From contig OZ237740.1 in assembly GCA_965178125.1 (NCBI GenBank), positions 558,001 through 622,000 on the forward strand: a stretch of DNA of 64,000 nt, read 5' to 3'. This document shows positions 20,261 through 50,078 of this stretch, in pieces. The DNA comes from Bilabrum cf. latius. Lineage: Eukaryota. The notes under the pieces were generated by a model. That model worked only from the letters and a program-made list of their open reading frames with translations, had not been told where the DNA came from and did no database searches. Numbering within the stretch: position 1 is the first letter of the stretch; each line of letters begins with the position of its first letter. Position numbers and translations under genes: made by a program.

Positions 20261-23529
<3,269 letters not shown>

Positions 23530-26600: not shown

Positions 26601-27196
26601 TGCTCTCCTTCCTCATGCTCTCCTTCCTCATGCTCTCCTTCCTCTTGCTATCCTTCCTCATGCTCTCCTTCCTCATGCTCTCCTTCCTCATGCTCTCCTT
26701 CCCCATGCTCTCCTTCCTCATGCTCTCCTTCCTCTTGCTATCCTTCCTCATGCTCTCCTTCCTCATGCTCTCCTTCCTCATGCTCTCCTTCCTCATCACC
26801 ACCTTGTTCCATTGAATCTGTAACATCTTCAATAGAATGTCTGGATTGGGTGTCATCGCCGCCGTCTTCAGCCGCTTCTTGCCCACTACCAGCATCGCCC
26901 TCGCCCTCCTGCGGGGCATTGGCATCGCAGTGCCCAACCGTATCGATGCAATGCTCACTTGGCGGCCCAATCTAAGCTCCTCTCATCGATTGATACAAGT
27001 GGGCTGCGCTGAAGTTAATCCTAGGTATTCTGAACATGCTTCTACTGGCATTTGATAGGTCTGCAATTCGGTTGCCGGTCCAAAGCACCGCAAAACTATA
27101 CCACAACAAGGATGCCAATGACCCAATCACTATTATTGCAGTCATAGCCTTGCCGTTGACCAACCTCGATCGTACGCGCGGTGCTGTGGCTTGCAT
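23699..27196 (-). CDS. Type II membrane glycosyltransferase family 10 (alpha-1,3-fucosyltransferase-like)
   Basis: N-terminal TM (AIIVIGSLASLLWYSFAVLW), a long acidic stem, and the GT10 motif FAFENT...GYVSEKAMDAIGAGAVPIFHG. One frame with about 15 TAGs; ends TAG-TGA. Confidence 0.75.
25211..25276 (-). repeat. Hexamer microsatellite encoding (SP)n
   Basis: (gagggt)n-like run inside the GT10 CDS. Confidence 0.8.
26411..26795 (-). repeat. 15-bp coding minisatellite (~25 units) encoding EEGEH / EEG*Q
   Basis: Plus-strand unit ctccttcctcatgct with variants. Six units carry TAG in the coding frame. Confidence 0.9.
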
Positions 27197-28663
27197 TCGT
27201 AGCTTCGTCAAATCCACAGAAAACCTACTGCAAGCGAGTTATCAACTTGCAAACCAGGCCTAATCGAAGAGCCCATACAATATGTACTAGATCGTTTCCA
27301 AAATATTTAATCACGCAACCTATTCGCTACCAGATGGCCTACGCTTGGCCAACTGATGGAACAAAGCAGAAATCGCACGCAATCCCTCTTGGGTCGGTTT
27401 CAACGGTGGCCGGGTCGGGATCCACCAGTCTCTACATACGCCGCGGTCCGCATGCTACTTCGAACAGTCTTTCAGTCATCCTTCGCCTCTCCGTCTCCTA
27501 GAGTCGGAGCGATTGCTGCCACGCCGTCTGGCTCCTGCTTGGACAAGAGGGAAAGGACCTAAGCCCGCCACCCATGGGTCTGGAGATGGGTGTGGGTGGC
27601 GGGCCGGGTAGCGGGAGTGGAGAGCTGTCGTTGCGTACCGGGGGGTCGCAGCCAGCCGCCAGCGATGCCGATGGTCGCAAGCAGGAGAGCGTTAGGCACA
27701 ATGGGCGTGCCCGCCACGATGGAGGCATCGCAGAGTCAGGAAATGCACGTGAGCCGTAGGATGCAACTGGCTGCCGCCGTGGTGCTTCGCGGTGCTGCTG
27801 CCGGGGTGCTGGAGGGCGCTAGCTCGCAGATGTCAGCATTATATGAGCTCACGAGGTACAGAGTGCCTGCCGGCGGTCGGCGGCGGCGATGCAATTTGCC
27901 ATGATTAGCTTCATAGAGTCCATTGTGCCGGCGCGTCGTCGTCTCCCTGAAGCCTGAATCGCTCCCGCGGTCGGATTCAGCAGCGGCAGGGCGGAGGGAG
28001 GGCGAGCCGGCCGCTTGGAGTCCTCCCTCCCCGATCAAGACAGCAGCGCACGCGGGCAATCGAATCTATTTCTTACTTGATTTTGTTTTAAAGCGCTGTT
28101 GCATCTGCGATAGGAGCTGACTGGAGCGCGGACGCGTTGTGCCTCGAGGCTCGTGGCGTTGGAAGCTGCTGTTGGTCCGCTCACTCGACTCATCGATGCT
28201 ATCACGCCTATCTCACCATGGAATTGCGTGTTTGGTATTCAATCAAGTAAGATTCCGTTGCTCGTTGCATGGATGCTGCGGGGAACGAGCTCACGATTGG
28301 AGGTGACAGCATTTGCGCGCCACCTCAGTGCTTCTCCAGAGCCGGGCACGACATTGGCAGCCGATCGGCTAGCAGAAATCATGATGTTATAATGCAGATA
28401 CAACAATCTATTGGCTTACCGTCGCATTCGAGAGATGGAATGAATCGGATCGAGTGGAGCGCGAGAGGGATCGGATCAGGGCGCGCGAATCCCTAAGGCT
28501 TTTTAACAGTGCAGCAGACCGCGATTCCGCCCGAGCAGTTCGATTCGAATCATGCTTCTGCAGGGCCTGATGGACGGACATTTTGATTTCGTGCGTTTTA
28601 GTGGGGCGCAAATCCCGAAACGTTGTAGCCGAACGGACAACTCGGGGTGGCAGGCACTTCCCG

Positions 28664-28942
28664 CCGCCGCCCGCTCCACGCACGATTGCGATGGCGGCGC
28701 GCGCGCCCGTTGAATGTTATCTTGTAGCACTAAACTAAGTTCTCCGCTCGGTGCGGGAGCGGGCCCCGGCCCGCAAGCCCCCGATCCCAGATCCCGCCCC
28801 GACCGCCGCCCGCTCCACGCACGATTGCGATGGCGGCGCGCGCGCCCATTGAATGTTATCTTGTAGCACTAAACTAAGTTCTCCGCTCGGTGCGGGAGCG
28901 GGCCCCGGCCCGCAAGCCCCCGATCCCAGATCCCGCCCCGAC
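28664..28942. repeat. 139-bp tandem duplication (2 copies, about 1 mismatch)
   Basis: ccgccgcccgctccacgcacgattgcg...gatcccgccccgac starts at 28664 and again at 28803. Confidence 0.9.
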
Positions 28943-31900: not shown

Positions 31901-33330
31901 CACGCGAGCATTGTCTCGGTCGTCCCTGAGCCGTGCTACAGGCAGAAGCAGGAGCGCACGCACATCCCTCGCCCTGCCCATAGAGGCAGCGGCGTGCAGG
32001 GGTACCATCCCTGCTCCGGGTTCCTCGCGCGCGCTCGTCACACCACCACTCCTTGCACCCATCGATCTGGATGACCTTGCCGTGGCATTGAGCACGTCTT
32101 CATCATCCCCGGCTCTTCTCGCGGCTCCTATGGCGGCCTCCAGCGCCTCTTGATCGATGTCCACGGCCGCGGGTCGATCGTCTGCTCCAGGCAGCCACGC
32201 CCGGCCCAAGATCGGCTCGAGGAGCGCGGCCCAGTCGGCTGCGTCCTCGAGCGCGTCAACGAGTGCGTGGCTGTCACCGCGCAGCACCGCCGTGGCGATG
32301 GGCTCACTTGTCACACCTGTAGACGGCAGCCGGATAGACGTGTGGATGGGGACACCGGATCGGGCTACCGATCCGGCCGCTGCGGACGCTGATGCACCCG
32401 CCCTACCACTGGGAAGCCTTCGGCCAGCATCCGCCGCTGAGGCCAGCTGCTCCAGCGCTGAAGGTGCTCGGCCATCCGCAGGGCTGCCTTTCCCTCGATT
32501 AGAGCCGGCGTCCTCTTCGAAGAGCTCCTCGCTTGCTACGGCTGCGCCCCCCTTCGGGGCTGGCGAGAATCTCCGCCTGTCAGGGGAGCTCGGGGGCCCG
32601 TCTTGCTCACCAGCTGCTCCAGGTGATCGATTTTGTTCCTTGTCGTCACTCTTGGCATCAACGTCTTTGCTGCTTTCCTCCTTGGCTTGTTTGCCCTTGT
32701 CCGCTTCTCTCTCTTCCTCCTTGGCTTGGCCCTTGTCCGCTTCTCTCTCTGCGTCTGCCCCGCCTGTCTCATCAGCCGAAGATTTGGGTTGCGCGGGAGC
32801 GTCGCTATCGGCCTGCTCGTTAGCACCACCATCAGCTATAGATTGGCTTGGTGGGGCGCTTCCATCCTTGTCTTCACCACCATCTCGGTCAGAATCTGGT
32901 TTCGACGAGTCGACCTCCGTGGCGTCCTCAGCCGCCTTCTCCAGTTTCTTCTAGGGGTCTGATGCCTATCCTTCAGACTGTGATGGAATTTCGCTGCCTG
33001 CATTCTCTCTAACCGAGTCTGGAGACTTCTCTGCAGACCCAGGCGACGCTGCAGTGGGAGGGATTTATGTGCCAGAAGCCGCAATACCCTATGACTAGGC
33101 TTAAATCAAGGCAACATGGTAGACTTTATCATAAAGTCAGCAATACTCCCAACATTTATGACCTTTGCTGCAGAGTTAGTGCAACTCTCACAGTTTTCCG
33201 AAGTAGCCGTTGTTGCTGTTTTGTCCTCTGAATCGTCCCCCGCAGCGGCAGCTTTTTTAGGGCTTACTTGTTTAGATCCTGCATCAATCTCGAACGAATC
33301 ATCTCCATAATCATCGTCTGAGTCACTCAT
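28961..33330 (-). CDS. Ankyrin repeat protein; complement(join(28961..33048,33192..33330))
   Basis: Many TPLH/TALH ankyrin repeats and an acidic N-terminus ([14 protein letters not shown]). A GTGAGA...TGCAG intron restores the frame. TAGs fall within repeats (TAIH*AA, ALI*SGADVN); ends in TAA. Confidence 0.85.
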
Positions 33331-33475
33331 TGTTTGAGTGGTGTACAGATGCCTCAAAAGAATTGCCGCACGGCAGGCTTATAACCGGAACTACTTGCAG
33401 TACCTGGCTGCGTCGCCCGATGGACGAAACCCGCCGTTCATCCTGAGACCCAACTCTTGACATAGATCCCTCCCG

Positions 33476-35963
33476 TCACTATCGCCCCTCTCGATCTGCG
33501 TCACCCGCGGCGCCCCAAGGCGACCCTCCCTGCTGCGCGTCCCGCAGTGCAACCAGCGCTGATCCCTTCGCCGATGCCTCCCTGTGGGTGGAAATCGACA
33601 CGGTCGTGCCTTCGGGAACGTCGGGGTGCTCCTGAATCGCCTCTAGGATCAATCGATCCATGCCCAAGCCGGTAGCTGCAGGCCCAGACATGCCAGCGCC
33701 AGCGCCCGCGCCCCCATCCCTTGCTGCCGCTGCAGCCCCCCTCCCCACCACCAGGTCACTCGTCACACCATCCATGGCGACGAGCGTCTCCTCGCCGAAG
33801 ACCCGATTCCTCGTGAATACCGAACCATCGATCTCCACAGCGAACCTTCGAGGAACCTTCGGCGGACCGCCGGCCGGCTCGCATGCCTGCGCGCACGCAA
33901 CCACACCAGCCGCCACCACCCTAGCCGCGCGCCTGACGACGGCCATGCAAACCCTTCTTGCCGCGAGGCAATCGGATCGGCTGACCTTCTGCCTAGCTGA
34001 GTCCGACCCGATTCCCATGCCTCGCCGGATGACGTCCGCGGTTGCAACCAGATCGCCGCTGGGGTCATCGTGCAAGACAGAGAACAAATCCGCGGTGCTG
34101 AACGGCTGCTTGCCGTGGCCGTCCCACCTGCTCCCGGGGTGCAGCGGTGACCCCACCCGGGGGTCAATTCCCCTGAGCACCTCCCCCTCCCCCACAGCGG
34201 CGCAGAGAACCCGCCTGGCGACCTCACCCAAGTACCTGCCGCTCACCAGACTCTACAGCCTGCGGGGGGCGTGGGCACTGCCCTGCTCGAAATCGGCCTC
34301 GATCGCATCATCGAACGAGCTCCAGGGCAGCAGCGAACGTTCTCTGAAGCTCGCCCACTCGGTATTGATCCCGCACGCCTCGTCGGGGTCACCTTCTTCC
34401 TCTTCCCAGACCACCTCTGCCGCTGCCTGGGCTGACTGGTCGTTCGGTGAGTGCCTCGCCACTGACAGCACCAGCTGCCGATCCCTAGACCTGCGATAGC
34501 TGTCCTCTGGCAAGACTCTTGCCCTGCTGCTGCCATCATCTTCGCTGCCCGCAAAGGCTTTCAGCTCGTTTCCATCCCCCGCTGCCTCTCCGTGTCCGTT
34601 GAGTTCCTCTCCCGCCTGCCACAGCCTGGATCGCGGAACGAAAAGCGCCGCATTTGTGCCCGTGCCCAAGATCACCGCCACTTTGCAGTCGCTGTCGTGG
34701 TATGCACCCAGCACCAGAGTACCCACGCAATCGTTCACCAAGGGCGGCACTGGTGCAGCTGCGCCAGCCGTCGCGCCGCTAGCCGTAGACGCCGAGCTCT
34801 TTTGCCCCTCTTTTCCGTCACTAGTAGTGCCTGCCACGGCTCTCTGCACGGCCTCCTGGTACAGCTGCACCACGTCCGCCCCCAACAGACCGGGGGTCTT
34901 CCAGCCCTTGTCCAGCCTGGTTGCAACCGCGCTGTGGAGGGCTCGCTGGTGGGCGGGAAAGGAGAAAACAAGGGCCGCCGGAGGCAGCGGGGTCCCGGGC
35001 GCCAGCTGGCTGCCGGTGCTCTTCCTCCCGCCCGCGGTGCTCATCGCTGCAATGCGGTGCACCTGCTCTTCGGAGGCTCCCGCCAGCATTTCCTCATCCC
35101 CCCCGCCGTCCGCCTCCTCTCCCCGGAGCATGGCCTTCAAGGAGCCGGGCAAGCCCTCCTGCTCGCACCGCTGGGCTGCACTCCTCTCGATCTCGAGGGC
35201 GTGCCTTGCGACCAAGTCGAACAGAGCAGGTGCTCCCAGCGACTTCTCCTTTGGGCCCATGGACATGGCGCAATCCTCCAGGGGCGCGAGCACCTTGCAA
35301 GCCCGCCCTCGCCCGAAGAATTCCACAGGGAGCGCCCTGACGGTGCTCCCACCGATCTCCACGGCCGTGGCAAGGCCCACTTCGGCCCCAGTTGGAGCGC
35401 CGCGCACGAAGGTGTCCACTGTTTCAAGCACCCCTGATGCACGCGGCGGGCCTTCCCCGGAAGACTAGGCGAAGCGTACAAACCCTGGTATTTTCGCAGA
35501 CACTCTGGACATTCTCTCGTGCCTCGCAAGCGAGACTGCATCACGCAGACCAGCCTACAGCGACTCTCGAATGCCGCGAGTAAGGGCTCGAAGCTCCTCT
35601 GGCTGCGCACCAATGAAAGCAAATATGTCTAACAGGAATGCAGAAAAGTATACAAAGTAAAAGAGGTACGGAGAATACGACATCAGCAGCACTCACCGAC
35701 ATGCACTGATAGATCTGCGTGTCGACCATCGAGAGGACCTTCCCGGATGCACAGTCCTGGTCAGACTTATCTTCTACCCCAGTGGATCTTATTTCTGATG
35801 ATCCACCGAGCATGCTGGCAAGCAAGATACTGGCGAGAAGCGCAGGAACCTCCACATGGTGTCTCGATTGCGCTGTGACCCGAGCCAATGGCATACTTCT
35901 GGCGTTGCGAACAAGCCAAGGCAGTGCATTTTTGCATAAAGACCGAATAAATGCTCTACTCAT
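33476..35963 (-). CDS. Hexokinase-family protein (divergent); complement(join(33476..35602,35697..35963))
   Basis: Motifs EIGGSTVR, FSFP, VNDCVGTL, VILGTGTNA, INTEWASF, SGRYLGEV and IDGSVF. Four in-frame TAGs, a 94-bp GTGAGT...CGCAG intron, and a TAG-TGA end. Confidence 0.85.
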
Positions 35964-36120
35964 GCTTTGATCGGTCCAAAACTATGGATAATTGCGGCTG
36001 ATTGGTCGCACTTAACTGATTCGATCAAAGCGAACGTTCGTGATCCATGCAATGCATTTTTTGTACAGTGTATTTAATCCGAAAAGTCAGATCCGTCTGC
36101 ATCCCGCACATTGGCTCAGT

Positions 36121-38526
36121 ATGGCCGGAATCGCTGGTGCACCAGCCGCCAAAAAGGCTCGTACAGACGAGGAAGAGGCTTCTGCCTCCGATGAGGTGTA
36201 TCCACCTCCTGCACGAGTCACAGAAGGTGCGCATATCGTCGGGCTGGATGAGTATCGTCGCGAGTATGCGAAATCTGTGGCTGACCCGATGGCGTTTTGG
36301 GCAGAGAAGGCCAAGCGTTACATCACGTGGTGGCGGCTTCCGGCTGATATCGCCAGAGGCAGTTTTGAGGTCGGTGATATCGAGTGGTTCAGTGGTAAGT
36401 TGTTGCGTCCTACCCTATCCCCAGCGACGAGCGTCTCACGATGGTATTTTACTGTAGCGAGCTCAATATATTTGCTGGATCCATTATGTGTGCAGGTGCC
36501 CAGCTGAACGTGTGCTACAACTGCGTGGATCGCCACATTGCGACGAAAGGTGACTAGGTAGCTATCATCTGGGAGTCCGACGACGGCCTGGCGATCAAGT
36601 ACACCTACAAGCAAGTCCTACAGGAGGTTTCGCGAGTCGCCAATGTCCTTCTCGCCCACGGTGTCAGGAAGGGTGACACGGTCGCGGTGTATCTGCCCAT
36701 GATCCCGGACCTGGCGTTCGTTATGCTCGCCTGCGCTCGCATCGGTGCCATCCACAGCGTGGTGTTCGCCGGGTTTTCCAGCGACGCGCTGAGGGACCGG
36801 ATCCTGGATGCGGAGAGCAAGTGAGTCGATGCTTGGACTTGTTTGCGTTCGTTGTCCCAGCGCCAGCCGCCGGCGCAGGCTCGATTCTACTCAGAGGGTC
36901 CTCTCCTCCCTTCTCACCCAGACCCCCCCTCCCCCTTCCCCCCAGAGGGTCCTCTCCTCCCTTCTCACCCAGACCCCCCCTCCCCCTCCCCCCCTTGTTT
37001 TGATACCGCTTCAGCAAAGGGCAGCCATGCACTCCATATATTTGCGCTGGTTGCTTCCCTCCATTTTTTGTTGCAGGGTGGTGATCACAGCGGACGAGGG
37101 GAAGCGAGGCGGCAAGACCCTCCACCTCAAGCACATCGTGGACCACGCGGTACTTGAGGCGCCCTGCGTTGAGAAGGTGTTCGTGTACCAGAGGACAGGG
37201 GCCGATGTGGGGTACGGCGCTAAGGACATTAAGATGGCAGACGCCCTGGAAAAGGCCCGTCCCTTCTGTCCCGCCGTCACCATGGACGCCGAAGACCCTC
37301 TGTTCATCCTCTACACGTCGGGCAGCACCGGCAAGCCGAAAGGGCTGGTGCATTCCCAGGCGGGCTACCTCCTCTACACGCAGCTGACCCATCACTACGT
37401 GTTTGACCACCGGGAGGGTGACGTGTACGCGTGCGTGGCCGACTGTGGGTGGATCACGGGGCACTCGTACATCGTGTACGGACCTCTGGCCAACGGAGCC
37501 ACTACTGTCATGTTCGAGTCGACGCCCGCCTACCCAGACTACTCGAGGTACTGGAAGCTTGTGGAAGACCACAAGATCACGCAGTTCTACACCGCTCCCA
37601 CGGCCATCCGCGCCCTCATGCGGCACGGGGAGGAGCCCGTGAAGAAGCACGACCTCTCCTCTCTGCGGATCCTCGGCACTGTGGGAGAGCCCATCAACCC
37701 CGAGGCATGGAGATGGTACTACGAGGTCGTTGGCCGCAAGCAGTGCGCCATCGTGGACACGTTCTGGCAGACGGAGACGGGCGGGCACATGCTGACCCCA
37801 CTCCCCGCGTGCACACCCTGCAAGCCAGGCTCGGCATGCCTCCCGTTCTTCGGCGTGCAGCCCGCGCTCATGGACGGGGACGGCAAGGAGATCCAGGGCA
37901 ACGGGGTGCAGGGGGTGCTGTGCATCAAGGCGCCCTGGCCGTCGATCGCGCGCACCATCTGGAACGACCACAAGAGGTATCTGACCACCTACATGGCCCC
38001 TTACCCGGGCACCTACTTTACCGGGGATGGTGCCATGCGGGACATCGACGGGTACTACTGGATCACGGGGCGGGTGGACGACGTGCTGAACGTGAGCGGG
38101 CACAGGCTCGGGTCCGCTGAGATCGAGTCGGCGCTCGTGGCGCATGACTCGGTGGCTGAGTCAGCCGTGATCGGGTTTCCGCACGACACGAAGGGGCAGG
38201 GCATCTGCTGCTACTGCACCCCTGTGGCCGGCATCAGCGACGACAGTGACGACCTGGTCGCAGAGCTGCGCATGCAGGTGCGCAAGGTGATCGGACCGTT
38301 CGCCACCCCGGACTATATCATCCTGACGGCGGCCCTCCCAAAGACCCGCTCGGGCAAGATCATGCGAAGGGTCCTCCGCAAGGTCATCTCCCAAGAGACC
38401 GACTCGCTCGGGGACGTGAGCACGCTGGCGGATCCCACGGTGGTGGATGTCCTCATCACAAAGGCGAACGCTGCCATCGAGCTGAAGAAGCAAAAGGCCA
38501 AGGCGGCTGCCGGGGGCGGCAAGTGA
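36121..38526 (+). CDS. ACS: Acetyl-CoA synthetase (AMP-forming); join(36121..36394,36496..36820,37077..38526)
   Basis: [42 protein letters not shown] and [12 protein letters not shown]. Two GT-AG introns; TAG 36555-36557 in GD*VAIIWE. Confidence 0.96.
36892..36988 (+). repeat. 51-bp-period C-rich tandem duplication in ACS intron 2
   Basis: cagagggtcctctcctcccttctcacccagaccccccctccccct occurs at 36892 and 36943. Confidence 0.85.
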
Positions 38527-38675
38527 AGTGCTTTGCTTTTCGTGAAGCAACTTGCGACCATGGGTTGCGACCGCTCGACCGGTGCTCGAGCATGTTTCCA
38601 ATTTGCGTCATTTCAGCGAATTTAAAGTGTTGAATTCAGCTTTTCCCGCCGTCCTCTACTACTCTGCTATCAATC

Positions 38676-41600
38676 ATGGCCGACAGACAAGTTGCCAAGC
38701 GACTGCAGTTGCTGAATTCCGTCGGAGGGCAAAAGGTCGATGCCTTTGTGCGCGTCCGGCCAAAACTTAGGATTGATGGGCCGCAGAACCATGTCGTTGT
38801 GTCGGCGGATGAGGAAAGATCTGAAATTATAGTTGATAGCGATCGGGCGGCTGCGACTGAATCTTTCATGTACGACAAAGTGTTTGACGCAAAGGCAAGC
38901 CAAAGCAAAGTGTTTGAACGTGCCATGCGACCGCTTGCAGACCAAGTTCTTGGCGGGGTGAGCTGCGCACTATTTGCCTACGGGTAGTCTGGAAGCGGAA
39001 AGTCTTTCTCCGTGCGCGGGACTGGCCCTGTCGGAGGATCCCAGGAAAGCAAAGGGATGAAGCCCGCAGATTCCGCCGCTGCCCCCGCTCCGAAGGGCTC
39101 CAATCCGCCTAGACATGATTTTGATCAAGATGACTTGGAAACACAATCACTTGTTCGAATCGATACGCACGCGACGCTCGGCCTGGGTTTGCTGGATGCA
39201 GCGGCGCCTTCCAGATCGGAGCGGAGCGGTGCTGTCGGCGGTGCGTCCAGTGGCTCTGGTCGAGGTGTAGATGTGGATATGGATGAGAAACCAACGGAAG
39301 GAGTAGCAGGCCCCTCCTTGCGACGAAGGAAGGAAGATTCGCAGCACGGACTGCTGCAGCGCGCGGTGTGCTACATCCTGCAGCGAGGCCGTGAAATTGC
39401 CGCCGGCGCCTCTGCTGGCAACGGAGCAAGAAGCACCAAAGCAGTTGCCCGAGCTGTGAGCGGAAGCGACGCAGCCCTAAGGGTATCCTTGAGCGCCTTG
39501 GAGATATACAATGAGACGCTCACCGACCTGCTGGACCCCGAGTGGGAGGCATCGGCCATGGCACTTGCGGAGGCGAGCAGTCTGGACATTGACGAGGGGA
39601 GCCGAGCAGGTGCTCGGTCCAGGACCAGGATCGGATCATCCCGGCGGCTGGGTACCCCTGGTTCTAATCGACGTCCTGTGTCTGCTCTGCGCGGGTCATC
39701 ATCCTCTCGCACGGCTCTCCGACGGGCCGCAACCTCTGCGACACGGACGCCCAGCAGCAGCAGCTCTCGCAGCAGGTAGCGGACAGGGGACGGTAGCGCC
39801 ACCGGCAAGTTGCGGCGATCTGCGACGAGCTCTCGCGCGGCCTCGAATTCCAGAAGTGCACCTAGAACCGACGGGGGTGGAGCTGCGGTGGGATTGCACC
39901 AGCAGGTGGCACCGCATGCCAAGCGTGCCCTCGTCGCAGGAAGCTCCTCTTTCGCTCATGGCAGATCCTCCGGCAGGTCAGTCGGTGAAGCAATTGCAAT
40001 CTCTGGAGAAGGCCGCGGCTCCGCGGCGCTGTCTATGCATGGCGGCAGCGAGAGCGATATCGAGTTGCTTAGACGGCTGGTGATTCCATCTACGGTGCCC
40101 AGGCCTGGCGCCAAGCCGCGAGTGATGGAACGGCAGGGGCTAGGCACCACCGTGCAACCGCTCACTGAGGTGAGGATCCGGTCCCTTGCCGAGCTCAGCT
40201 CCATCATCCATCTCGCAGAAAGCAGGTGTCGCTTTGCCGAGACGAACTTGAACCTCCAGAGCAATAGGGCGCACAGGATCTTCACGCTCAAGGTGGAGCT
40301 CCTCTTCGACGAGGCGGGAGCGATGCCAGGGGCTGCTGCGATTGCGACCGACGACGAGCAGACAGATCTGCCTTCACCATCCGATGACGATACTACACCC
40401 GTGGCTGCAGACAGGGCAAGGTCAACGCCGAAGGTTAGAACCGCCACGCTGAGGGTGGTCGACCTGGCAGGGAGCGAGAACGTCAAGAGGAGCGGCGCAT
40501 CCGGCGCATCGGCCCGCGAGGCCCGCAACATCAACCGCAGCCTGCTCGCACTCGGGAGAGTGATACAGGCACTCGCTTCATCGCATCCTCACATTCCGTA
40601 CAGGGAGAGTCTTCTCACCAGGATACTCAGTGAGGCTCTCGGGGGAATATGCAAGACCACCTTTTTGTGCTGCATCAGCCCCTGCACGACGTCCTTGTCA
40701 GAGACACTAAGCACGCTCCGGTATGGAAGGGAGGCACGGGATGCCCTTAACATATCGCACCTTCCTCGCGCAAAGCAGGATGAGATCGTGATCCAGGCGA
40801 TGTAGAAGCGGGTCAAGCAGCTGGAGGGACTCATCGAGTCGCAGCGGAGGCTGGACGCCGAGAGGATCAAACAGCTGCAGAGACAGGTTCACGGCCTGCA
40901 GTCGCAGAACGAGGAGCTCGACGGGAGGTTATCCGAGGCGAGCCAGAGGATAGACACCCTCAGGAAGGGCAGGATAGAGCTGAAAACCAGGGCGCTGCGG
41001 TCGCAAGCCGAGCGAGACGCTGCCTTGGAGGCCACGCGGTAGATCGGTCAGATGCTGCAGCGAAGCAGGCGGGAGTGCTCGGACCGCGCATAGGAGCGAG
41101 ATGCAGCGATGACCACGCTCTGTGAGGTGCGGCAGCACCGTGATGCCTTGCTGCATGAATAGAAACGCGTTCAGGAGGCATTGAGAGCCGAGTATGAGCG
41201 CGGTTTCAAGGCATTCCAGGAGCGGACAGTCGAGGCAGAAACCTTGCTGGAACGGGGCAAGGAGAAGGAAGGCATCATCCAGCGCAATTCCAAGAAGATG
41301 CTGGAGTATCAGGCAGATCTAAGCGAGCGTGTCGATAGGATACGTGGTTTGCTGCAAGACAGCACGGAGGACCTGAAAGCTGATCTGGATCGACTCCGGC
41401 AAGGCTTCTTGCAAGCTGGCAAGGAGCGCGTGAGCCAGCACGATTCGCTGTGCCAGAGCTTCAAGAGGCTCCGTGGCGGGGCCGACAAGGCCATTGCTGC
41501 TGCCAAGGAGAATGCTGCCGCCACCGGTGACCTGCACCGCTCGGCCAGTGACAAGGCGCACGAAGCGTGGCAGGCACTCGCAGGCGACGCCGTCAGGGAG

Positions 41601-43094
41601 GTATCCAAAGCAGCTGACCATGCGAAGTACGTCGCTGACGCGGCCACGTCAGCTCTCTCCTCAGTGACGAGCAGCATGTCTCGCCTGCAGCGCGACGCGG
41701 AAGCGAGCATGAGCAGCCTCAAGGACGAACTGGTCCGCGCCATCGGAGACGCAGAGCAGAGGCTGCAGCGGATGCGTGACAAGCAGGCAGATGATACGGA
41801 CAGGCGAGTCGCCGATTCGAAGCGAGAAAGCGACGCGGCAGCGGCTGACGCCAAGCAGACAGAGCAGCGGCTGCAAGAGGCAGCGGACAAGGCCAAAGAG
41901 GAGCTGCAGAGGCTGCTGACGTCACAGTTGGATCGGATCAGCGAGCTGACGAGGTCGGCCTGCACGGCTCAGTCGCGCCGAGCGCAGGCGTCTTTCTCTA
42001 CCGCTCAGAAACGAGGAGAAGACGAAAAGGCGTGGAGCAAGCAGGCAGTCTAGGACGTGCAGACTAGCATGCACCAAGCTCGGGAGTCCGCTGCGTCGGC
42101 CGGCAGCAGGTCAACCCACCTCTACGAATCATTTCGAAGCGAGGTGGAAGGGCTGGCGAGCGGCTGCCGCGAGTCGGCCGAATCGCAGTCCAAAGCGGCA
42201 CGCGAGCTATCCAAGAGCTTTGCTTCCTAGTGCGATGCTCGGGTGGTCGAGTTGAAGCGCGACAAGCAGCAGCAGGTGGAGGCGATGCAGAGGCATCTGA
42301 GACAGGGAAAGGACAAGCTGCAGGCAGTCCTAGCGGAATCAGTGGTAGCAGAGGGCACTTCTGCAGTGACGACTGACGGTGAAAGGGCACGGATGCTCCA
42401 GCAGCAGGCGATCGATAGCGGGAAGCGGGCTGGCGATGCCTCGGCATCCCAGGAAGCGAGAGTAAGCACCATCGCAGAGGAGATCGGATCGATGGAGGGC
42501 ACCACCAGGGCTGCAGTCGGTGCTCTGGAGGAAGACCAGGTGCAGTTGGTGCCCCTTGCTGCGCTGCAGTTGACTGCAGGCAACGACCTGCCGGAGTCCC
42601 GCGACGACGCCGAAGTCTGTACCGAGAGCATGGGCGAGCACGGTGTGGCACGGGTGGAGGCTGAGAGCAGAATACGGAGGAAGGTGGCGGAGCCTGGACC
42701 TGGGGTGGATTATCCTGATCTGGTCGGCGGACGTGATTCGGATAGGGGGGAGCGTATTGGCGGGGCTGGTGAGGTGCACTCCTGCCAGGCTGGGGCTGGT
42801 GGAGGTTGTTTGGAGCAAGCTCCTGTCATGTTCACAGCTGTGGATGCAGCCAGCGTTGCGGAAGGGCAGATGGCTAGCATCATAGCCCGGGTAGAGGCGG
42901 AGGAGGAGGGAGAGATTGGCCTTGAGGCGAATGACGGTCTAGTGGGAAGCAGTCAACCGAATGGTCAGGTGCTTGCTGCGTCGAGCGAGCGCAGTGCCGT
43001 GGCAGACCCTTCAACTCTAGTGGCCATGGATGCCCATTTAGAGGATTCTGTGCGGTCAATGTTGTCTGAAAGGGCACAAGGGCTGGCAAAGTAA
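38676..43094 (+). CDS. N-terminal-motor kinesin (kinesin-5/BimC-like) with long coiled coil, ~1472 aa
   Basis: VRVRP, YDKVFD, FAYG*SGSGKS, LEIYNE, VDLAGSE, INRSLLALGRVI and HIPYRES. Single frame with 8 TAGs (38985, 39777, 40803, 41040, 41091, 41160, 42051, 42228); ends in TAA. The subfamily is an inference. Confidence 0.92.
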
Positions 43095-43226: not shown

Positions 43227-46200
43227 ATGACACAACCTTAGACCAGTAGCTATTTTTTATCGATCTGGTTCATTAGTGTTGTTTCGCTCGCCGCTGTATC
43301 GCTTTCTCTTTCCGTTTATGACGGTGTACAGTGCTCAGATACGCAGCGAGCTTGTGCTCCGGAGGAGCACTTTCCAGCTCGAAGCATAAAGCAATCAGAG
43401 GCTACAACCCTATTTTTACATGCTATGTTCATGGTGTATGGTGCCAGCAAGAGTGGAAGTGCAGCCTTGGCATGGTACTTCATCGCAGCTGCGAGCACTG
43501 ACATTAGTGTGAGAGAGTGGTATTGCAACCTTTGCAGACCTACCTTAAGATTCGCGGAAAGTTTAAGTTGGCGTCCATCCTCTCTCGTCGCAGCTCGTGG
43601 TCGCGTCTGGATTTCTTGCGACACAACGATCCACAGTCTTCACTCTGCTCGGGCTGCCTTTCGTCCGCCAGAGATGGCTGCTAGTTAGCAATCTAGGCTA
43701 CTCACTAGCGATTGAAAGTACTGTTGCAGTTAAATTTCGTCCGCATAGACATGCCATCGTGCTAGTCTTATCACTCGGCAACGGGATCCTCTGCTGTGCA
43801 GTTGCATATGCTGAAGTCTAGGGGTTTGCTGAGGCAGCTGTCGTATCACTTACATTGATGTACTCGGCGTTCGCGACTTATTTTCTCCTGGAGATATTCA
43901 GGGGTCCGATTGACCGGTACTTGGATCCAATCCTGTCGTGTCGGTGCTGCCAGCACATGGGGCTGTGCAGTTTGCCACTGCACTCCGTCCCTGGTGCAAG
44001 CACATTCAACGCAAAAGGGGAAAAGCTCCAGAAAGTCGATATTGGGGACGCATAGTACAAATTTCGCGGGGCGCAGTTGACAAGCTCTGAATGGGTTGTC
44101 CTAGTTTACATTTTTTGTAGCTTGAGTTACTCCTTACAGTTCTACGGGACCAGGTGGTTTGGACTGACAGAATCTGTCGCAGGATACATTGTGGTTGTTT
44201 GTGATGCATTGATCGTGCTAGCTAGGTGCGGGCTTGCCGTGGCAGTGGTACATGCAGAGGTCACGGCGGTCGCAAACGAAGCATCCAAGGCCCAGCAATA
44301 CAAGCGCGAGGCAGCCGATGCCCGCCTCGACACCATCCAGCAGTTCACCAGGTACATCTTCCACGAGGCCCGGGTGCCCCTGCAGGCCGTGTCCCTGGCT
44401 GTGGACGAGCTGCAGGAGACTGTGAAGGAGGCCAGCTTGCAGGCGAGAGAGCTGGAGGGGCTGGGGGCAGGTATGAGGAGAAGAGGAGGAGGCGCCTCGG
44501 GGCGACTGGTGGAGCGAGGTGGGGGCGGGGATGATGTGGCCGGTGCAGTGGACGGCGATGCATCGCCCCGCGGTCGCGTGCTGACCGCGTTGATGGGCAC
44601 GCTGCAGGAGGCCCGTGAGGTGCTTGAGTCACAGAAAGAAGGGTGCAAGGGACTGCAGCACATCTTCGACGACGTGCTGGAGGCGCAGCGCATCGAGCAG
44701 GGCAGGCTGAAGCTGCGGGATGATGACGTGAATCTCGGTCAGGTGCTGCGCGACATCCGCACGGTGTTTCGTCGATCCGCATCTGCGAAGGGTGTGGATC
44801 TTCATACTGCTGTAGGCTTGGGTGTGCCTGGTATTGTGCGGGGCGACGGGCTGCGCATGAAGCAGGTGGTGGCGAATCTGGTCTCGAACGCGATCAAGTT
44901 CACTCCGGAGGGGGGGCGCATCGACGTGCTGGTGTCGTCAAAGCCCGATGAGATGGCAGCATCCTCAAGTCCCAGAGGCGATTCTAGTCACGTTGCGGGT
45001 CGCGGAAGCAGCAGCAAAGTACATGCGGAAGTTGGCAATGACTCTTAGGCTCCACTGGGTTCAGCGTTTGTTTCGTCCTCCGCCGCCGCTGCAATTGCGG
45101 TTACCGCCCCGAGACGCCCTGATGCGCGGGTGTTATCCACAGAGCACCCGGGCACCGAGGGAGGCACTGGGTCAGCAGCAGAGGTAGCCAGCGCTGGTGC
45201 CGCGTACCTCAGCACTGCCAGCGGCAGCTCCACCATCGTGCGCATCACGGTCACAGATACCGGATGTGGCATGTCGGCTCAGGATGTGGCGGGGCTCTTC
45301 AGCCCGTACAAGCAGACGAGGCACGGGGTGGCATATACTGGTTCGTCGTCTGGTCTGGGCCTGTACATTTCTCGCGGGATCGCTCGTCAGATGGGAGGCG
45401 ATCTGACGGCGAGCAGCAATGGAGAGGGCCGGGGCAGCGGTTTTGAGTTTTGGTTTCCAGCGCAGGCATGTACTGGAATTCCAGTGGGTTCTGGTTACTC
45501 AAATCCGCAGTTGTCTCGCCGTTGGCGGCACAGCTCACACGGTTCAAGCTGGAGCGGGTCATCAGGTCGGCCACCTCCTGGCAGTGGCCAGTCATCAAGT
45601 GGTGACGACATGATGACCCGGGTGCGAAACGACCTTCGAATGACGTTGCAGGCCACTGTAAGCGTCGAGGTGCAGGGCTTGCATGCCCAGTAGGACGGTG
45701 GCAGACCGCTTCCTTCGGGTGCGGTCAAGGCGGCTGGTGGTGATCCGGCCGTGGGGGACCCTACGGTTTCACAAACTGTCCCGGTCCAGAAGCATCTTTA
45801 GGTTGTGCCCACTGGTGGAAGTCTGGGGCGTGAAAAGCCGACGGAAGCCAACAGACAGAAAATCGAAGGAGGTGGCCCCAGTGGGGGCAATGACACGACT
45901 TCTGGCTCGACGTGTGGCGCTGTAGATTCAAGTGGTGGCGCTGTAGCTGTCATTTCAAACGATGCCACTGCTGGTAGGACTAATGATAGTGCTTGTATGT
46001 CAAGTGCATCTTCGAAGCGCCGACGCGTGCGCAAGCGATCCTCTGCCGCCAAGGCCAGGTCCTCCACTGCAGCCCAAGCGAACAAGTCTGCCGCCGCCCC
46101 CATGGGTTGGTGCCTCGTGGTGGACGACGTGTCCACCAACCGCAAGCTGCTCGCCAGGGGCATGCGCAGGATCGGATACGACGTGCAGGAGGCAGCGCAC

Positions 46201-46539
46201 GGCAAGGAGGCGGTGGCGATGTGTCGTGCCAAGGCCGGGGAGATCGGCGGGTCAGGTGCGGGTGATGGCAAGGATGAGTTCAGACATGGGCCGTACCTGG
46301 GCCTGGTCACAATGGACAAGTCGATGCCTGTGATGGACGGCGTGGAGGCGACGCGCGCGATCCGGAACATGCTGGGGTCGCGCGTTACGATCGTGGGCCT
46401 GACGGGGGACGCCCTTGGCACTGATCTGGAGTCGTTCAAGGCGGCGGGGCTGGACAGCGTGCTGGGCAAGCCGGCGAGCGCGAAGGAGATGCACAGAGCG
46501 GCTAGCCGCGTGAAGCGGTCTGGTGCGACATTATCTTGA
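43227..46539 (+). CDS. Membrane-bound hybrid sensor histidine kinase (TM-HisKA-HATPase-REC); join(43227..43508,43594..46539)
   Basis: RYIFHEARVPL (H box), NLVSNAIKFT, DTGCGM, GLGLYIS, and a receiver VVDD...TMDKSMPVMDG...GKP. Multi-TM N-terminus, 6 TAGs, ends in TGA. Confidence 0.9.
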
Positions 46540-47302
46540 AGCTGGCTAGATCTATCTGCATGATTTGATATTTTTAGGGGCAATCATGTGCAACCGACTA
46601 TCTAGATTCTGGAATCCAAATCGAGCTAGACTGAATCCAGATCGTGACATGTCCTCTGTTGCAACTCGTAGCCGCTACTCTCACGTGTGCAGGATCCGAG
46701 TGCCATGGCCTTGCTTGGTTGACTCACTACGGGTGCATCTCAGAAACTGCCTACTGCCTACATTTAGCGCTTTGTCTCCAAGCCATCAACTCAGGACCGC
46801 TTCACGCGGCTAGCCGCTCTGTGCATCTCCTTCGCGCTCGCCGGCTTGCCCAGCACGCTGTCCAGCCCCGCCGCCTTGAACGACTCCAGATCAGTGCCAA
46901 GGGCGTCCCCCGTCAGGCCCACGATCGTAACGCGCGACCCCAGCATGTTCCGGATCGCGCGCGTCGCCTCCACGCCGTCCATCACAGGCATCGACTTGTC
47001 CATTGTGACCAGGCCCAGGTACGGCCCATGTCTGAACTCATCCTTGCCATCACCCGCACCTGACCCGCCGATCTCCCCGGCCTTGGCACGACACATCGCC
47101 ACCGCCTCCTTGCCGTGCGCTGCCTCCTGCACGTCGTATCCGATCCTGCGCATGCCCCTGGCGAGCAGCTTGCGGTTGGTGGACACGTCGTCCACCACGA
47201 GGCACCAACCCATGGGGGCGGCGGCAGACTTGTTCGCTTGGGCTGCAGTGGAGGACCTGGCCTTGGCGGCAGAGGATCGCTTGCGCACGCGTCGGCGCTT
47301 CG
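46013..47302. repeat. 508-bp inverted repeat (46013-46520 / 46795-47302) formed by the two receiver-domain coding segments
   Basis: The arms are reverse complements with no mismatch that I could see; the spacer is about 274 bp. Confidence 0.9.
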
Positions 47303-50078
47303 GGGTCGTGGTGGAGGCATTGCTAGCCGCAGTATCCTCTATCACGTGGCTTTGCTTCTCATCCTCGCCTGCAGCACCAGCACCAGCACCAGCACCAGCA
47401 CCAGCACCAGCACCAGCACCAGCACCAGCACCAGCACCAGCACCAGCACCAGCACCAGCACCAGCACCAGCACCAGCACCAGCACCAGCACCAGCACCAG
47501 CACCAGCACCAGCACCAGCACCAGCACCAGCACCAGCACCAGCACCAGCACCAGCACCAGCACCAGCACCAGCACCAGCACCAGCACCAGCACCAGCACC
47601 AGCTAAATTCGAATTGACCGGATCATCCACAGCTTCTATTGTCAAGCGAAGGTCGTTGTGCATTCGCGTAATTGCATCGTCACCACCAATTGACGCAGCA
47701 TCTCTGCGCGAAACCATGCTTGTAGTTGACAACGACCCGTCTCCAGAACTCTTGCGCCACCTGCGAGACAGCTGTGGATCCATAGATGCTCTGCTGCGCC
47801 TTGATCCCACTTCCATTCCAGCATGCACCTGCGCTGGAAACCAAAACTCAAAACGGCTGCCCCAACCCTCTCCATCGCTGCTCGCCGTCAGATCGCCTCC
47901 CATCTGACGAGCGATCCCGCGAGAAATGTACAGGCCCAAGCCGGACGACGAACCAGTGTATGCCACCCCGTGCCTCGTCTGCTTGTATAGGCTGAAGAGC
48001 CCCGCCACATCCTGAGCCGACATGCCACATCCGGTGTCTGTGACCGTGATGCGCACGGTGGTGGAGCTGCCGCTGGCAGTGTTGAGGTAAGATTGAGCGT
48101 CCTTGTCATTATCCGCGTGCTGTTGCTCACTGCTGCCGCCTTGCTCATCTGGTACCGCTCTGGCTGCATCCACTCTAGACCTAGCACCTTTTCCCGCAAC
48201 TAGAATTCCTTCATCATCGCCTGCTATTCTATCTTGGCTCAGCTTTGCATCAGATGTTGCCAGCACGTCGATGCGCCCCCCCTCCGGAGTGAACTTGATC
48301 GCGTTCGAGACCAGATTCGCCACCACCTGCTTCATGCGCAGCCCGTCGCCCCGCACACTACCAGGCACACCCACACCTACAGCAGTTTGAAGATCCACAC
48401 CCTTCGCAGATGCTGACCGACGAAACACCGTGCGGATGTCGCGCAGCACCTGACCGAGATTCACGTCATCATCCCGCAGCTTCAGCCTGCCCTGCTCGAT
48501 GCGCTGGGCCTCTAGCACGTCGTCGAAGATGTGCTGCAGTCCCTTGCACCCCTCCTTCTGTGACTCAAGCACCTCCTGGGCCTCCTGCAGCGTGCCCATC
48601 AACGCGGCCAGCACGCGAGCGCGGGGAGATGCATCGCCGTCCAATGCACCGGCCACATCATCCCCGGCCCCACCTCGCTCTACCAGTCGCCCCGAGGCAC
48701 CTCCCCCTCTTCTCCTCATACCTGCCCCCAGCCCCTCCAGCTCTCTGGCCTGCAAGCTGGCCTCCTTCACAGTCTCCTGCAGCTCGTCCACAGCCAGAGA
48801 CACGGCCTGCAGGGGCACCCGGGCCTCGTGGAAGATGTACCTGGTGAACTGCTGGATGGTGTCGAGGCGGGCATCTGCTGCCTCGCGCTTGTATTGCTAT
48901 GCCTTGGAGGCTTTGTTTGCGACCGCCGTGACCTCAGCATGCACTATTGCCACGGCAAGCCCGCACCGTAGGACGATGACAACTGCATCGGTGATGGCCA
49001 CGATTTGCAATGCGGTTTGAAGATCCAAACCCATCCATCTCGTGCCGTAGTATTCGAGTGGGTATGATAATGTCGCTCCCATGTACAAAATAACCATCCA
49101 GTCGACGGCTGTGAGAAACCCCAGCCTGCTCTCGTACTCGCCATTCTGTACATCAAGCCAAGATACCTCTGCTGCATTGGAAGGGATATCTACTGCATTC
49201 GCTTCTTCTGACTGCGTGATACCCTGGCCCATCTAAGAATTTGTGGCCGCGTATTTTTCAGACTATATCTACGCTGTGGAGAGCCTCTGTCCACCGTGAT
49301 GGGTTCCACAGCAGCAGCCCTCCTGCAATGCGACTGCTGGAGCCGATAGCGCTGGGTCGCACCATTGATCCAGGCGACCTCTGAACAGCTCCAGGAACAA
49401 GTACAATAGGAAAATTGAGAACGAACTGCTTGCTTGCACGTTTGCATACATTGCGAGCCATGGAGCGTGAGCCAGAGCTATTAAGCTGCAACTCCACCCG
49501 AGCACAAAGCATGCAATGAATACGCCTGGCAGCCTCCGGGCCCTGAAACTCAGCGCAATATTTGAGTCATTCAACAAGGAAAATGACAGTGAACCTACGA
49601 ATAACCAGCGTTGCCGGGCAAGAGGCTTGCCTAAAACATCAAAGATAGTTGACCGATTCATTGACAGGAACAGAGCTCCAGTGCCCATCTGCGAACAAAC
49701 TAGGATTTTGTTGCTCGATTTGTGCAATTCATCAATTTTGGCGTATGCGATACGCGTTCCATTGGCGCATTAGAGTCTCACCGCTACATCCAGAGTTGTG
49801 GCGCAAGCAAAATACAAAGATATTTGTGGCCTCGGCCGCGTAGTCATGCCATAGAGCATGAATGCGGCATGGAGAAATAGGACTGTCGCCTATGTCTACC
49901 TGAGCAACTACAGGCTGAAATCTTCTGGCCTCCCACATCCGCTGCGCCCAGCAGTGCTGCAGCCTAAACCATCATCAAGACACAGTCCAAATAGAGCCAC
50001 GGAACTAAATATCACTGCGATTTGGCAGTACAGGTACCATTTACGCTAATCAGCACTGTCTTTTGACAATCCTCTCAT
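46791..50078 (-). CDS. Hybrid sensor histidine kinase paralogue; complement(join(46791..49688,49782..50078))
   Basis: Same motifs as the + strand copy, with an intron at the equivalent position (GTGAGA...CGCAG). 8 TAGs, all in the N-terminal half; ends in TGA. Confidence 0.9.
47372..47603 (-). repeat. Perfect (GCACCA)n microsatellite, ~38 units, encoding poly(Gly-Ala)
   Basis: Uninterrupted hexamer run in the linker before the receiver domain. Confidence 0.95.

Follow-up and report, generated by a model that had tools for sequence, protein, structure and literature searches.

Does a TAG codon in the nucleotide-binding loop of a kinesin gene end translation, or does it specify an amino acid? 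The question is raised by a 64,000-nucleotide stretch of eukaryotic DNA (contig OZ237740.1, positions 558,001 to 622,000; hereafter, the window), in which the frame of a kinesin gene carries an in-frame TAG, codon 104, where the P-loop (Walker A motif) of other kinesins has glutamine. We find it very likely that in this lineage, a GC-rich and intron-poor eukaryote, UAG alone has been reassigned to glutamine with UAA and UGA retained as stops, and that the kinesin TAG is an ordinary sense codon. On this reading, the kinesin gene is intact, transcribed, and subject to purifying selection, and it encodes the P-loop sequence G-Q-S-G-S-G-K-S.

A TAG Codon at the P-Loop Glutamine Position of a Kinesin Gene

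The codons TTT GCC TAC GGG TAG TCT GGA AGC GGA AAG TCT, to which a preliminary description of the window had drawn attention, were found in frame at positions 38973-39005. The alignment to the Pfam kinesin family that this description had proposed as a check matched the open reading frame (ORF) to PF00225 (E = 7.6e-72; 242.5 bits, the curated cut-off being 29.3), with the match broken into three stretches by inserts in the motor domain. In all three Protein Data Bank (PDB) alignments shown, which are to KIF11/Eg5, the TAG stands opposite the q of 'faygqtgtgktf'. From 39,832 representative homologues, we also took the best 150 and counted residues in the corresponding column. Four lacked a recognizable P-loop, and the remaining 146 carried glutamine in 139 cases, proline in five, leucine in one, valine in one, and glutamate in none. 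The glutamine described earlier as invariant is thus highly conserved (95%) and not strictly invariant.

From the ATG at 38676, the kinesin frame contains eight in-frame TAGs and runs for 1472 codons to a TAA, which is probably the terminator. Past this TAA, 28 further codons lead to a TGA (1501 codons). The seven other TAGs (Table 1) align poorly, codon 710 excepted.

TAG Alone among the Stop Codons Lies within Long Open Reading Frames

Our survey of codon usage covers the 64-kb window and a 7-kb syntenic contig described below. The window has a GC content of 0.55-0.65 and is densely filled, on both strands, with long ORFs that are broken only by TAG. In a non-overlapping set of 28 ORFs, 125 of the 18,329 codons are TAG. 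Sixteen ORFs have 400 codons or more; their 15,644 codons include 108 TAGs, 460 CAGs, and 190 CAAs, and no TAA was found inside their bodies. In-frame TAGs occur in 15 of these 16, the exception being the ORF of the last exon of an acetyl-CoA synthetase (ACS) gene. TAGs interrupt the conserved cores of the kinesin, a DDX5-type helicase, ACS, and a hexokinase, and in each the conservation carries on beyond the TAG. TGA closes 12 of the long ORFs and TAA closes four; in the full set, TGA closes 21 of 28. When frames were delimited by TGA only, 11 of 16 had no TAA, and the other five had eight TAAs in total, each of them close to a frame end (final 17% or initial 11%). Some 44 would be expected if TAA stood to TAG as CAA stands to CAG (0.41). 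Since TAA is restricted to frame ends, and the long ORFs close in TGA or TAA, we conclude that TAG alone is reassigned.

Orthologous Codons and Conserved Columns Point to Glutamine

The search of representative proteins returned a 129-residue protein, P0104, that is 78% identical to the kinesin N terminus. Its source is a metagenome contig, L001 (7106 nt, GC 0.56), which is syntenic with window positions 33269-39500 and has the same gene order: hexokinase, ACS, and the N terminus of the kinesin. L001 also contains in-frame TAGs, nine in 652 hexokinase codons and five in the 313-codon frame that includes the kinesin N terminus. No in-frame TAA was found in the three L001 genes.

The L001 partner of a window TAG is CAA in the kinesin (codon 104) and in ACS, and CAG in hexokinase (codon 477). 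In the other direction, an L001 TAG falls opposite a window CAG three times (hexokinase, ACS, and kinesin). The partners at all 19 aligned TAG sites are glutamine (six), arginine (three), aspartate, glutamate, and proline (two each), and cysteine, alanine, serine, and threonine (one each); where local identity reaches 0.6 or more (eight sites), the partner is glutamine six times and aspartate and glutamate once each. We then compared all 20 amino acids as meanings of TAG by likelihood, using a substitution table derived from the same window/L001 alignments. Glutamine was the best of the 20 and glutamate the second, worse by 13.3 natural-log (ln) units over the eight sites and by 19.4 over all 19. 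Leucine, tyrosine, and tryptophan, each dismissed in the preliminary description, were not among the six best.

A TAG in a DDX5/Dbp2-type DEAD-box helicase gene of the window is aligned with glutamine in both Dbp2 and DDX17, and its column is glutamine in 120 of 120 homologues. A TAG in a hybrid histidine kinase gene falls opposite a CAG in its paralogue (Table 1). The kinesin codon had been put forward as the strongest single-site evidence for glutamine. Taken alone, it cannot separate glutamine from glutamate, and the helicase site is cleaner (120/120 versus 139/146). Because of the orthologous L001 codons together with the helicase column, we assign TAG to glutamine and not to glutamate, and the assignment first proposed for the kinesin codon holds across the window and in L001.

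We estimated nonsynonymous (dN) and synonymous (dS) divergence between the window and L001. Hexokinase has a dN/dS ratio of 0.16 and ACS one of 0.035, with dS of 1.6-2.3 in these two genes. In the kinesin, dS is saturated and gives no ratio, and dN over codons 1-125 is 0.195. Because the kinesin is conserved to this extent between window and L001, it is not a pseudogene, a possibility that the preliminary description had raised.

Contigs from Sequencing Runs Retain the TAG

Contigs from several public sequencing runs, among them X1, X5, X6, and X7, match the window. No matching run is on record as RNA, and RNA content was judged from the joints seen in aligned contigs. X5, X6, and X7 contain GT..AG joints in ACS (36393>36495 and 36820>37077). 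Joints of the form CT..AC, from genes on the minus strand, were found in X5 (33048>33192 and 35602>35697) and in X6 and X7 (23330>23474). The ACS stop codon is TGA in the window as well as in L001, and X5 has a poly-A loose end behind position 38638, 112 nt downstream of this TGA. X1 contigs contained none of the splice joints seen in X5, X6, and X7.

The ACS TAG is unchanged in spliced X6 and X7 contigs, as is the hexokinase TAG in a spliced X5 contig (record 10). Over the kinesin, X5 provides a 1988-nt contig (38814-40801) and a second contig (40788-42827), with no differences and no gaps, and a single X1 contig spans 36958-43200 with no differences. Long contigs over the P-loop come from X5 and X1 only; the depth of X6 and X7 there is almost nil. 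Since the X5 and X1 contigs match without differences, nothing indicates that the kinesin TAG is spliced out or edited. An earlier statement that no splice signals bracket this codon cannot rest on dinucleotides (GT and AG both lie within GGGTAGT); the X5 and X1 contigs, however, show no joint at the TAG. No transcript lacking the UAG, the other outcome that had been envisaged, was seen: TAG is kept in contigs of runs in which neighboring genes are spliced.

Weighing the Alternatives

A number of observations weigh against reading TAG as an ordinary glutamine codon. The survey covers 64 kb plus 7 kb of sequence. Scans of the window and L001 for tRNA genes found none. In two of the 16 long ORFs, a TAG directly precedes the closing TGA, and TAG may therefore keep some stop function. 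At well-aligned sites, an L001 TAG falls opposite a window GAG once and a window GAT once, and one TAG in the histidine kinase paralogues falls opposite GAG in a divergent stretch. Kinesin codon 710 is threonine in six of six distant orthologs. The ACS column is variable among 114 homologues and holds lysine (45) more often than glutamine (25), followed by aspartate (11), arginine (8), and glutamate (3); the TAG is also opposite lysine in five of five printed best-match alignments, which are to fungal structures. We regard the ACS column and structural alignments as neutral on the identity of TAG. In the HK1 and HK2 alignments shown, the hexokinase TAG is opposite the glutamate of f-e-k in both halves of the protein, and in a repeat array of EEGEH units, TAG stands where other units carry glutamate (read as glutamine, it gives EEGQQ). 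None of these residues is glutamine, but they are replacements of the sort that glutamine would be expected to undergo at variable sites. Finally, X5 is labeled 'RNA? (probably DNA)', and since the kinesin is intronless, its X5 contigs are not certifiable as cDNA.

Several of these observations would be explained if TAG specified glutamate, as in the codes of peritrichs and of the Blastocrithidia type, or another amino acid other than glutamine. Hexokinase, one well-aligned ortholog site, one divergent paralogue site, and the EEGEH repeat all place TAG at glutamate, and the myosin P-loop carries glutamate at the position equivalent to the kinesin glutamine. Nevertheless, the orthologous L001 codon in hexokinase is CAG, so that the lineage has glutamine at codon 477 whatever TAG means, which resolves the conflict at this site; a glutamate reading of the hexokinase TAG, taken from the PDB alignments, was rejected on this ground. 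With six of eight well-aligned partners glutamine, glutamate far behind in likelihood, a helicase column that is uniformly glutamine, and a kinesin column without a single glutamate, we consider this alternative extremely improbable. A code in which TAG and TAA both specify glutamine and TGA is the sole stop (code 6), with TAA merely rare in a GC-rich genome, would account for the open codons beyond the kinesin TAA and for TGA as the commonest terminator. It is very unlikely, given 0 TAAs against 108 TAGs in the long ORFs, where CAA nevertheless reaches 41% of the frequency of CAG, and given that the eight TAAs in TGA-only frames all lie at extreme ends. L001 argues the same way: a TAA replaces the TGA stop of the window hexokinase, and its three genes are free of in-frame TAA.

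TAG might also have a dual meaning, glutamine within genes and terminator in some 3'-end contexts. The ends of two long ORFs suggest this: hexokinase closes with CGA TAG TGA (33476-33481, minus strand; TAG at 33479-81), and the ORF at 23699-27196 also closes with TAG TGA (23699-23704, minus strand; TAG at 23702-04), which is above chance when TAG makes up 0.7% of codons. In L001, the terminal hexokinase TAG is conserved and is followed by TAA (CGC TAG TAA, ~1192-1197, minus strand). Such gene ends have the look of fossil TAG stops, each backed up by a second stop in tandem, or of residual use of TAG as a stop. Relics of ancestral stops explain the pattern equally well, however, termination at TAG was not seen in our data, and the Iotanema report describes a code without a UAG terminator (PMC5304391); we judge a dual meaning unlikely. 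It is only under the standard code that the TAG would have to be untranslated, through a pseudogene, a sequencing error, splicing out, or RNA editing. Such an explanation is virtually untenable for a frame of 1472 codons without TAA or TGA, in a window where nearly all long ORFs contain TAG, with X1 and X5 contigs that show neither a difference nor a joint at the site, a sense codon in the ortholog, and an N terminus that is 78% identical to it.

If UAG is a glutamine codon, as we think very likely, it would be decoded by a tRNA-Gln(CUA), which pairs with UAG and not with UAA and would probably derive from tRNA-Gln(CUG). Recognition of UAG by eRF1 would have been lost or weakened; the eRF1 gene is not in the window. 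Recoding of the selenocysteine or pyrrolysine type was considered and dropped, as the TAGs are frequent and lie at glutamine columns; no search aimed at a recoding element was made.

Features of the Kinesin and of Neighboring Genes

Positions of the kinesin motifs and of the TAGs discussed above are collected in Table 1. The P-loop conforms to the pattern GxxxxGK(S/T), and NLQSNRAH, which is listed there as the switch I region, is a variant of the motif NxxSSRSH.

Table 1. Kinesin features and in-frame TAG codons in the window; X marks the residue encoded by TAG
Feature	Position	Strand	Basis
Kinesin coding sequence, 1472 codons plus TAA stop (predicted) at 43092-43094	38676-43094	+	Frame, Pfam, structure alignments
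Motor domain, ~codons 20-690, then long coiled-coil tail	within 38676-43094	+	Alignments
P-loop (Walker A) coding segment, GXSGSGKS	38982-39005	+	Sequence; ortholog P0104 reads FAYGQSGSGKS
In-frame TAG, kinesin codon 104, P-loop glutamine position (G-X-S-G-S-G-K-S)	38985-38987	+	KIF11 alignment, homologue column, L001 codon
Seven other kinesin TAGs	39777-79, 40803-05, 41040-42, 41091-93, 41160-62, 42051-53, 42228-30	+	In inserts, neck, or coiled coil
Switch I region, NLQSNRAH	40251-40274	+	Sequence, ortholog comparison (choanoflagellate orthologs have the same SNRAH)
Switch II, DLAGSE	40461-40478	+	Sequence, structure alignments
TAG in ACS exon 2, GDXVAIIWE	36555-36557	+	L001 CAA; within spliced X6/X7 contigs
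TAG in hexokinase, codon 477, RRLXSLVSG	34253-34255	-	HK1/HK2 alignments, L001 CAG, spliced X5 contig (record 10)
TAG in DDX5/Dbp2-type DEAD-box helicase, last exon (20264-21010), Q of xQIRPDRQT	20990-20992	-	Dbp2, DDX17, homologues
TAG in hybrid histidine kinase, opposite paralogue CAG (44293-44295) in a 95%-identical stretch	48897-48899	-	Paralogue alignment

The solved structures nearest to the window kinesin belong to kinesin-5 (KIF11/Eg5 and cut7; best KIF11, E = 4.6e-45). The proteins closest to it, an unnamed group of choanoflagellate and metagenome sequences (E = 1e-58 to 1e-68), come ahead of KIF11, and membership in kinesin-5 is not established. Full-length orthologs with 47-51% identity come from the choanoflagellates Salpingoeca urceolata, Hartaetosiga balthica, Diaphanoeca grandis, Stephanoeca diplocostata, and Monosiga brevicollis. 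The window kinesin shares with the ortholog group, which includes a second metagenome contig (L002), the P-loop, SNRAH, DLAGSE, the neck motif ALNISxLP..QDEI, and the long coiled-coil tail. It differs in its P-loop wording (GQSGSGKS rather than GQTG(T/A/S)GKT) and in its motor domain (38676-40775, plus strand), which is interrupted by three long inserts of low complexity at about codons 117-260, 295-480, and 545-585. These inserts are kept and not spliced out in the X5 contigs (38814-40801 and 40788-42827). The L002 ortholog, at a GC content of 0.72, has an Ala/Gly-rich insert after its EVYNEQLEDL strand.

Kinesin contigs from X5 and X7 match the window up to 39769 and then continue in foreign letters, and an X5 contig enters from foreign letters at 40298. 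A search of the window for these foreign letters gave no match. Chimeras formed at a CAG-rich run may account for the two loose ends, as may a divergent second allele of the second insert.

Pfam identified the following window genes: TPR, JmjC/Cupin_8, CLU+TPR, DEAD-box helicase, ankyrin, hexokinase, ACS, kinesin, two hybrid histidine kinases, and BRCT. The helicase probably has a single intron of ~1323 nt (21011-22333, minus strand; GTGAGA...GCAG) between FEDQ and IRKILG, as judged from protein continuity; it would be far longer than the 94-256-nt introns seen as contig joints. Homologues of the DDX5-type helicase carried no taxonomic signal. For the CLU/TPR protein, the homologue search returned only TPR-repeat proteins of at most 33% identity, which was no help for its four TAGs outside the TPR region.

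The hexokinase keeps the ND, GTGTNA, and NTEW motifs and also has long inserts. Its counterpart of the f-e-k glutamate, presumably a glucose-binding residue in HK1 and HK2, is glutamine in this lineage, and on this sequence comparison the enzyme may be atypical or non-catalytic. A single X5 contig (30747-35974, minus strand) takes in all of hexokinase together with the 5' part of the ankyrin gene, and a 143-nt intron (33049-33191) is spliced in it. The ankyrin and hexokinase genes lie on the same strand, separated by at most ~100 nt, with transcripts that either overlap or are produced jointly.

The paralogous hybrid histidine kinases are arranged tail to tail (43858-46539, plus strand; 46791-49688, minus strand). 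The two copies share 100% identity over their last 508 nt and 94-95% over other blocks, a pattern that suggests gene conversion or an inverted duplication of recent date. In one of them, (AG)n encodes a long Ala-Gly run. The acidic EEGEH array occupies 25900-26800 on the minus strand, within the ORF at 23699-27196, and its TAG-containing higher-order unit, HEEGXQEEGE, occurs six times. At ~27200-28900, the summed depth of X1 contigs is 75-157, versus 11-16 elsewhere, with many variant contigs and clustered base differences. This region looks like a repeated element between genes.

Affinity of the Window and Origin of the Code

The closest named kinesin orthologs are the choanoflagellate proteins listed above, and the closest named ACS proteins come from Cafeteria roenbergensis (73%) and Bicosoecida sp. 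(71%). In a quick single-gene tree of ACS, the window and L001 group together (support 100) as sister to Cafeteria (89), within a clade (support 96) that holds both named bicosoecids. These single-gene comparisons suggest that the host is a bicosoecid-like stramenopile. The more distant kinesin ortholog on L002, which is 44% identical to P0104, has its sole in-frame TAG at codon 1445 of 1500, and this TAG looks like a normal stop.

As its nearest named homologues are stramenopile (ACS) and choanoflagellate (kinesin) rather than metamonad, the code of the window probably arose independently of that of Iotanema, and may represent a new origin of a UAG-only code in the window lineage. Putting the pieces together, we offer a tentative scenario to which we give a little less than an even chance: an undescribed, independent origin of a UAG-only reassignment to glutamine in a heterotrophic stramenopile, a relative of bicosoecids with a GC-rich genome and few introns. 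It would be represented by at least two diverged relatives (the window and L001), with L002 apparently using TAG as a stop; UGA would be the main stop, unlike in every described lineage in which UAG is glutamine, and the TAG-TGA and TAG-TAA gene ends would record ancestral stops.

A further lineage with such a code would give an independent replicate on the changes in eRF1 and tRNA that are required. The window lineage offers a contiguous GC-rich genome, matching contigs in several public runs, and UGA as the main stop. There is also a practical consequence: annotating this genome or its metagenomic relatives under the standard code truncates most long genes. P0104 is an example, having only 129 residues, with an in-frame TAG directly after its last codon in L001.

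Comparison with Known Genetic Codes

It is very rare for a nuclear code to treat UAG and UAA differently; the literature drawn on here describes Iotanema, a rhizarian, and a few ciliate lineages, and sees in such cases evidence that the mechanisms behind the two codons can be separated. Our literature searches, which did not extend to subscription journals and supplementary files, turned up no such code for stramenopiles or choanoflagellates. NCBI translation table 15, to which the code of the window corresponds, renders the kinesin site as FAYGQSGSGKS and reproduces the ORF set of the window. Its label is 'Blepharisma nuclei; some phages', and the attribution to Blepharisma is called a historical error in the Iotanema paper (PMC5304391). 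The same source lists, for code 6, in which UAA and UAG both specify glutamine, ciliates, hexamitin diplomonads, some ulvophytes, and Amoeboaphelidium; the window shares UAG as glutamine with these organisms but does not use TAA as a sense codon.

In the phyllopharyngean ciliates Hartmannula sinica and Trochilia petrani, UAG specifies glutamine and UAA is firmly the preferred stop, according to McGowan et al. (2024; PMC11687900). The window resembles them in reassigning UAG alone, to glutamine, while keeping the other stops, and is unlike them in its GC content of 0.55-0.65 and in nearest homologues that are not ciliate-like. The nuclear code of the fornicate Iotanema spirale, as given by Panek et al. 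(2017; PMC5304391), likewise reads UAG as glutamine with UAA and UGA as stops. A tRNA-Gln(CUA) was predicted for Iotanema in that account, as the sole anticodon that reads UAG and not UAA, one mutation away from tRNA-Gln(CUG). The window matches this code in reassigning UAG alone to glutamine and in keeping UAA and UGA, and in both cases the assignment was drawn from conserved glutamine columns. The two differ in their terminators: Iotanema genes end mostly in UAA (104 of 119 scrutinized transcripts; PMC5304391), whereas the long ORFs of the window end mostly in TGA (12 of 16, with TAA in the other four).

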